From a virus (lineage: Monodnaviria; Loebvirae; Hofneiviricota; Faserviricetes; Tubulavirales; Inoviridae), in the IMG/VR virus record IMGVR_UViG_2675903352_000001: a stretch of DNA of 8,367 bases, one strand, 5' to 3'. The notes below the pieces were generated by a model that was not told where the DNA came from, ran no database searches, and worked only from the letters and a program-made list of their open reading frames with translations. Below, in pieces: positions 912-2,131 of the stretch. Positions within the stretch are counted from its first letter, which is position 1. Every line of letters starts with the position of its first letter. Position numbers and translations under genes: made by a program.

Positions 912-2131
912 TCAGACCCGCCGGGCCTGAAGAACAACGATGATATCGGTTTTGGCCCGTTCATCAGAGTCTGAACCAAACACATCCGGCAGAAATGAAA
1001 GCCCTGTCCGCGCTTTTGACGTCTTGTTCTCCGCCAGTCCGCCCAGCACAATGATATCACCGTCATTCAGACTCACCGACGTGGACACCTCGCGCTTTAT
1101 CAGCGTTGGCGTGTTATTCACCCCCGTATCCGTTTTTGCAAAGTTACTCAGCTGCTGAACGATATCCAGACCTATCACATCCTGCGTCACGGTGGGTTTT
1201 ACCCGAAAAATAGCCCCGCTGCTGCGGTATTCCACGGACTGCACCGGAACCTTATCCTGCCATGACACCGATGACAGAACAGGCACATCAGACCCCACGC
1301 TGAAAACCGCCTCCTTACCGGAGATAACGCGCAGACGTGGCGAACTGACCACCTGAAACGGCTGTCTGTCCTGAATAACTCATACATTGCATCAACAGAC
1401 CCAGTGCTGAGACGAATAAAGTTATCCAGCCCCGATGCGCTGCTCATGGTGATACTGAAACGACCGGATAAAAGCTCTGCGGCCAGCGCCAGACCTGAAC
1501 CGTTACGCTCACTGGTCTGGACCTCAAACACATACCCGGCAACCGAAACCTCCTGTGCTCTGACATCAATCTGCGGCAGAAGCTGCCGGACAAGCTCCAC
1601 TTCCCGGGCCGTTCCCCGGAACACAAACACATCCCCGGATGCACTGATAAACCGGGTACCACTGCTGACCGCCTGCCATGTCTGCTCACCGTTTGCCCCC
1701 TGAACCGGCTGTTGTGCGGCCGGAAGCTGACCCAGACCGGAAAGCGCCTGATGCAGATACTCCACTGTCCGGTAACGGGGCGTGTAAACAAGGGATTTCA
1801 GCGGCTCCTCTGGTGCGGCAGGTGTATGACTGTAAATATAATCAACGCCCTTTTTACGGCTTATCCTGATATTCATATTACCGAGATAACGGGTAATAAA
1901 TTCCCGTTCATCGATATCCGGTGAAATATGCAGCGTGACGGCCCGCGGGTCATTGACCAGTTCAGGGGCCAGCATGAACGGTGTTTTCAGGACTTCAGTC
2001 CAGAGCAGCGTCACCGCATCAGGCAGGCTCATGCGGTTAATATCCAGTTCCGTCCCGGCTGAAAACGACGGCAGCGGGAAAAACAGCGCCATTGCAGGCA
2101 GCACCGGGAGAAGTAATTTTCTGATATTCAT
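912..2131 (-). pseudogene. pIV-like secretin (filamentous phage export channel), disrupted by a frameshift near 1353-1382
   Basis: N-terminal part in the frame of ORF 1199..2131 (signal peptide MNIRKLLLPVLPAMALFFPLPSFSAG, GYVFEVQ motif) reads sensibly to ...TDSRF and then becomes nonsense. The conserved secretin C-domain (QVVSSPRLRVISGK...IIVLGGL...) continues in the frame of ORF 912..1352, which opens after a stop at 1380-1382. The two frames overlap around rc(1353-1360) CGTTTCAGG, consistent with a 1-nt deletion. Confidence 0.8.

Follow-up and report, generated by a model that had tools for sequence, protein, structure and literature searches.

The stretch of DNA analysed here (the window, 8,367 nt) is an exact, 100% identical piece of the Escherichia albertii NIAH_Bird_8 contig BBVQ01000057.1 (GCA_001514805.1). 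It carries on its minus strand a dif-bounded filamentous prophage of ~8.05 kb, which extends from position 415 to position 8367 and for a short stretch beyond the window end. Read in the direction of transcription, its genes are a Rep_trans initiator (6148-7374; PF02486, 77.3 bits), a small gene in the position of the ssDNA-binding protein gene (5803-6144), a coat-like gene (5189-5611), a pIII-like gene (3780-5150), a pVI-like gene (3418-3777), a truncated gene I for the pI/Zot assembly ATPase (2436-3410) and a pIV-type secretin gene (912-2131), all on the minus strand. The secretin gene therefore lies where it is found in an inovirus morphogenesis module, adjoining gene I in the company of the Rep_trans, pIII-like and pVI-like genes. 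Just outside the prophage is a Phd/YefM-Doc(Fic) toxin-antitoxin pair, the antitoxin of which occupies positions 1-222 of the window.

The prophage end downstream of the secretin gene is a functional-looking dif site (AGTGCGCATAATGTATATTATGTTAAAT, 415-442, minus strand) with a single mismatch to E. coli dif, no such match being expected by chance. The opposite end, 71-98 nt beyond window position 8367 (L004 1667-1694), is marked by the hybrid dif-like site GGTGCGCATAATGTGTTACACGTTATGT, whose XerC arm is intact. In E. coli E24377A the related copy lies between these two sites as well. No integrase turned up among the genes called in the element. Because of these ends and this gene content, we assign the element to the XerCD/dif-integrating filamentous prophages (IMEX type). 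IMEX elements include CTXphi and VGJphi of Vibrio, CUS-1 of E. coli K1 and YpfPhi of Yersinia, all of them filamentous and integrating at dif through XerCD. The window element resembles them in being flanked by dif, in having a rolling-circle Rep and no integrase among its called genes, and in the tandem arrays formed by its relatives. It differs from CTXphi, which is without a secretin of its own and uses the host EpsD, in that its phage family encodes its own pIV.

The secretin gene runs from an ATG at 2131-2129 to a TGA at 914-912, a length of 1220 nt as against 1221 nt in intact relatives. Over this length we found two overlapping open reading frames on the minus strand, one of 310 aa (1199-2131) and one of 146 aa (912-1352), which share 154 nt and are offset by one, as the initial annotation had proposed in placing the N-terminal part and the C-terminal core of the secretin in different frames. 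Codons 1-259 remain in the original frame (1355-2131, minus strand) and encode a signal-peptide-like N-terminus, the N-domains and the first 6 residues of the Secretin domain. The remainder of the 310-aa product (1199-1354, minus strand) is an aberrant tail of 51 out-of-frame residues (RWSVRHVCALSP...) that ends at a TGA. The displaced frame for residues 260-406 (912-1355, minus strand) holds nearly the whole Secretin domain, and the 146-aa frame opens within it at a GTG (1352). On its own, the 146-aa frame matches Pfam Secretin PF00263 (E=1.6e-24, 86.8 bits, profile positions 11-166 of 169), and the 310-aa frame gives a weak Secretin_N match (residues 115-193). Direct inspection of the sequence and its translation revealed no Shine-Dalgarno sequence upstream of the GTG and no signal peptide in the 146-aa product, and separate expression of this frame was rejected on these grounds. 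No continuous frame covers the full secretin, the gene being split after codon 259 by a 1-nt deletion; it is a pseudogene of the pIV-type secretin family.

The nature of the deletion was established by base-by-base alignment. Where relatives read GCCGTTTTCAGG, the window reads GCCGTTTCAGG, with one T missing; in short form, the site is CCGTTTTCAGG in nine related E. coli copies and CCGTTTCAGG in the window. The lesion lies at 1356-1358 on the minus strand, where the window has TTT (AAA on the plus strand) against TTTT in all nine other copies, these being the copies fetched, four of them tandem copies from one strain and one a plasmid-borne remnant; TTT was thus seen only in the strain of the window. 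Compared with the intact E. coli copies, to which the gene is 98-99% identical in nucleotides, this is the only indel in 1221 nt. It changes the frame from codon 260 onwards, so that R258 F259 Q260 of the wild type becomes R258 F259 R260 followed by 50 more aberrant residues, and adding one T back yields a single secretin frame of 406 aa. The initial annotation had anticipated a single-base deletion within 1353-1382, a continuation of ...TDSRF into QVVSSPRLRVISGK and a repaired protein of roughly 405 aa, and the alignment agrees with it on each of these. Its remark that the site has no long homopolymer is right as to length, although the site is still a homopolymer (T4 to T3). Likewise, the frameshift does lie inside the secretin domain, but not in its middle: the break comes after residue 259, when only six residues of the Pfam Secretin domain (254-404) have been read, and thus leaves essentially the entire domain, with the whole barrel and the gate region, out of frame.

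The repaired secretin is identical in amino acids to the copy of Sx181-0-1 and differs from that of E24377A at one position. Downstream of the break, each comparison showed 7-8 nucleotide differences, all of them synonymous, indicating that the lesion is very recent and that the secretin region was under purifying selection until very recently.

The repaired protein also provided the test of family membership that the initial annotation had called for. It matched PHROG 1012, 'assembly (protein IV of M13)', over almost its entire length (E=4.9e-128, residues 10-406, profile positions 5-400 of 403), as well as Pfam Secretin PF00263 (89.9 bits against a gathering cut-off of 27.5, residues 254-404) and the f1 pIV structure 7ofh (E=6e-11, residues 161-402). 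The match to PF03958 (Secretin_N / N3; residues 115-193) scored 20.5 bits, below the cut-off of 28.2, and the PHROG profile spans this region. A further match was to the GspD structure 6i1y (E=7e-16). The similarities to phage pIV proteins show it to be a full-length pIV-family secretin, and by homology to 7ofh and 6i1y the intact relatives would form a putative gated multimeric outer-membrane channel.

Such relatives were readily found. A megablast of window positions 850-2250 against complete E. coli genomes showed full-length copies in 22 of them, at 98-99% identity, with most matches covering 1402 nt against 1401 nt of the window. The annotations of E24377A, UTAK-18 and Sx181-0-1 have the gene as a single CDS of 1221 nt under the name 'type II secretion system protein GspD', so that intact 406-aa copies, for which the initial annotation had suggested a search, do exist. 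Among the intact relatives, the E. coli E24377A prophage secretin (WP_001026226.1) is the closest. The E24377A prophage and the other copies share the gene order of the window (Rep, coat genes, pIII-like, pVI-like, Zot/pI, secretin); the E24377A and JNE112863 elements adjoin hipBA, and those of E24377A and Sx181-0-1 have dif at their end. More distant relatives, with 57-66% amino-acid identity, occur in Oceanisphaera, Pectobacterium, Glaesserella and Bisgaard taxon 45. In these the junction motif TDSRF[Q/R/H]VVSSP is conserved and runs uninterrupted within one frame of 374-411 aa, from which the single frame is clearly the ancestral state as judged by sequence comparison.

Close to the secretin lesion is a second one, in gene I. 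The gene as it stands (2436-3410, minus strand) encodes 324 aa, 320 native and 4 aberrant, where relatives have 418 aa. What shortens it is a 13-bp tandem duplication in which CCACCACAGGTAA occurs twice (2446-2471, minus strand; units at 2459-2471 and 2446-2458) and which shifts the gene into a TGA at 2436-2438. Deletion of one 13-bp unit gives a 418-aa pI collinear with its relatives. The displaced C-terminal, periplasmic part (2141-2445, minus strand) is still open in the original frame and ends with a TAG at 2141-2143, 9 nt before the secretin ATG. The ATPase domain and the hydrophobic segment (LLSVVVGGLFFWFWGRLVLDFF) survive the truncation, and the last 98 residues are lost. Direct CCACCAC repeats lie on either side of the duplicated unit, from which we infer a typical product of replication slippage. 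The E. coli copies have TTTT and a single 13-bp unit, and hence a 406-aa secretin and a 418-aa pI (annotated as 422 aa in one case), whereas both genes are frameshifted in the window; the gene I duplication is strain-specific and independent of the secretin lesion. The initial finding had mentioned neither the gene I (Zot) frameshift nor the dif-integrated prophage.

Taken together, these data make it very probable that the window holds a genuine, very recent, strain-specific one-T frameshift in the pIV-type secretin of a dif/XerCD-integrated ~8-kb E. albertii prophage. An artefact, with TTTT and an intact 406-aa gene in the true genome and a sequencing or assembly error in the window, would be compatible with a lesion sitting in a homopolymer, though a short one, and with an allele that is a singleton; the synonymous-only differences downstream, moreover, give no independent sign of age and are what an artefact would look like. 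Consensus indel errors in Illumina MiSeq data are, however, rare to very rare at runs of 3-4 nt. The BBVQ01 record is that of E. albertii NIAH_Bird_8, a close relative of which, with identical housekeeping genes, is the penguin isolate P5661 (PMC5797873), and the draft genomes of that study were obtained by Illumina MiSeq sequencing and Platanus assembly (PMC4700944). The Logan re-assembly of run DRR017189, built independently, although very probably from the reads that also gave the deposited assembly, is identical to the window in the overlapping part, across both lesions. The 13-bp duplication in the neighbouring gene is beyond any base-calling error and strengthens the case for a genuinely decaying element. 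Outside the two lesions, the other ~6 kb of closely aligned prophage had no frame-breaking indels, one block of 2931 nt being gap-free, which argues against a generally indel-prone assembly. The 310-aa, 146-aa and 324-aa products are on record only for NIAH_Bird_8 among ~15 billion proteins (the 310-aa and 324-aa products in 2 contigs each), most of the listed members of the 90% cluster to which the secretin belongs are 406 aa long, and exact-pattern scans of GTDB species representatives and JGI metagenomes returned no match to the T3 allele. We therefore regard an artefact as improbable, in keeping with the initial view that it was less likely but not excluded. That the strain has several prophage copies, at least one of them intact, and that the assembler reported only the broken allele, is less probable again. 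Relatives do have four or more copies in tandem at dif, and the Logan contig stops inside the secretin, at window position 1171, as if the assembly graph branched from a shared segment. Yet this contig is unbroken from more than 7 kb of chromosomal flank, over the left prophage boundary and through both lesions, and a tandem copy would have caused branching at the boundary. Position 1171, where the contig stops, is inside a 124-bp piece (1104-1227) that is known as an isolated remnant on ~104-kb E. coli plasmids, and a small fragment elsewhere is therefore enough to explain it.

A different question is whether a real lesion might still let some pIV through. A leaky frameshift would rest on a -1 slip at U_UUC_AGG, the P-site tRNA-Phe moving from UUC to UUU while AGG waits in the A site. 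As read directly from the sequence, a -1 shift on CGU-UUC would restore the exact wild-type ...SRFQVVSSP..., at a low level; no E. coli sense codon is rarer than AGG, and P-site slippage is generally known to be promoted by slow codons in the A site. Still, the site is CGU_UUC_AGG and not a canonical X_XXY_YYZ heptamer, folding of the 83 nt that follow is no stronger than that of shuffled sequences (z=-0.94), and all nine other close copies as well as the distant relatives have one continuous frame with no conserved recoding signal. A trickle of pIV could not, in any case, restore export with gene I also broken. We give this slip only a slender chance. Programmed -1 frameshifting at the break is unlikely and was rejected for want of a heptamer, of a downstream structure and of conservation, and phase variation at the T run was likewise rejected, 3-4 nt being too short for slipped-strand switching. 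Least probable of all is that both lesions are hypomorphic or reversible, the slip at U_UUC_AGG regenerating pIV and the 13-bp duplication collapsing by slippage in a low-frequency switch. Were this so, virion export and the toxic secretin would be off in most lysogen cells and recoverable in a few.

Read from its native start, the secretin gene gives 259 correct residues, comprising the signal peptide and the periplasmic N-domains, before 51 aberrant ones and a stop. The part known from solved secretins as the beta-barrel and gate in the outer membrane is not made. In Ff phages, the periplasmic part of pI contacts pIV, and the pIV channel is needed for virion extrusion. The 98 residues lost from pI probably correspond to this pIV-contacting part, and the early pI stop, lying about 300 nt upstream, probably uncouples the translation of pIV from that of pI as well. 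Going by Ff assembly, virions would not be extruded without the pIV channel and the part of pI that contacts it. With its export and assembly genes both broken, the prophage is thus expected to extrude virions no longer, and we infer a loss of virion production. The element is a defective, recently disabled and decaying prophage. Since pI and pIV together make up about 31% of the element, the occurrence of two lesions there is not statistically distinguishable from random decay, and we therefore make no claim of selection for export loss.

Among known systems, the virion export secretin pIV of the Ff phages (f1/M13/fd) resembles that of the window in its length of ~400 aa and in a gene that adjoins gene I. 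Identity is low: the secretins of Ff, Vibrio and Pseudomonas phages are 24-27% identical to that of the window among the tblastn matches listed. Ff phages are also episomal, whereas the window element is integrated at dif and its secretin gene is broken. The C-terminal Secretin domain is likewise homologous to that of type II GspD (6i1y, 5wq8; E about 1e-15), which explains the RefSeq name 'GspD' for the phage protein. GspD has about 650 aa and more N-domains and is encoded in gsp operons, whereas the window protein has 406 aa and belongs to a phage morphogenesis module; 'GspD' is here a family-level name, not a role. A nucleotide search of GenBank phages with the secretin region returned no match, and the closest deposited phage genomes, the uncultured gut metagenome inoviruses D_HF5_61 and Dulem virus 53, have about 46% protein identity. 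As phage matches were found only at the protein level and at 46% identity or less, assignment to a named phage was rejected. No published description of this phage family was found in the literature searched, including for E24377A or E. albertii.

The secretin gene is an ordinary strain-specific pseudogene, whose value lies mainly in annotation and in the reading of this one genome, and it raises no new mechanistic question. RefSeq has the fragments as separate, ordinary E. albertii proteins, WP_237764131.1 (146 aa) and WP_237764133.1 (324 aa), without a pseudogene flag; the dif prophage of NIAH_Bird_8 should be annotated as defective, with secretin and Zot as pseudogenes. It offers a snapshot of very early prophage decay, with two independent frame-breaking lesions and as yet no other damage. 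It also draws notice to the little-described dif-integrating, secretin-encoding inoviruses, which form tandem arrays in enterotoxigenic and other E. coli.

Several further observations were made on these elements. The pIII-like gene (3780-5150, minus strand) encodes low-complexity linkers rich in Gly, Asp, Ser and Asn (e.g. GDGDGDGDGDG) and lies in the part of the prophage that is most divergent from its E. coli relatives, with 88-92% identity and indels as against 98-99% elsewhere. Such divergence would fit a module for host recognition that differs from strain to strain. E. coli JNE112863 (NZ_AP045072.1, 1604201-1645602) has at least four intact related phage copies and the start of another, in tandem at dif beside hipBA. 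They have a common morphogenesis module and fall into two sets by their regulator, Rep and ssDNA-binding proteins, and their Rep module is distinct from that of the window and E24377A, which is of the Rep_trans type; these differences suggest modular mosaicism.

Homologous secretin genes are truncated in Haemophilus ducreyi (303-310 aa) and in Candidatus Sodalis endolongispinus (139-140 aa), and secretin decay thus recurs in other lineages. The 9613-bp circular 'plasmid' pJNE25-005_3 (NZ_AP045060.1) is the genome of a related phage in circular form, the prophage ends meeting near 1648-1660. An ISEc31 element is inserted in the secretin gene at about codon 124, and small indels are numerous in the record, which represents either another independent pIV inactivation or a low-quality record. 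In NIAH_Bird_8 itself, Logan contig DRR017189_375 ends at window position 1171, in the 124-bp segment 1104-1227, and the strain may hold a second homologous secretin fragment elsewhere. On pUTAK-3 (NZ_CP157161.1; L007 6001-7900) and similar ~104-kb plasmids, secretin-gene remnants lie among IS fragments, and those of pUTAK-3 adjoin a dif-like site, AGTGCGCATAACGTACATTATGTTAAAT (L007 7871-7898). The remnants on these plasmids suggest that a phage of this family once integrated at a Xer site of a plasmid.
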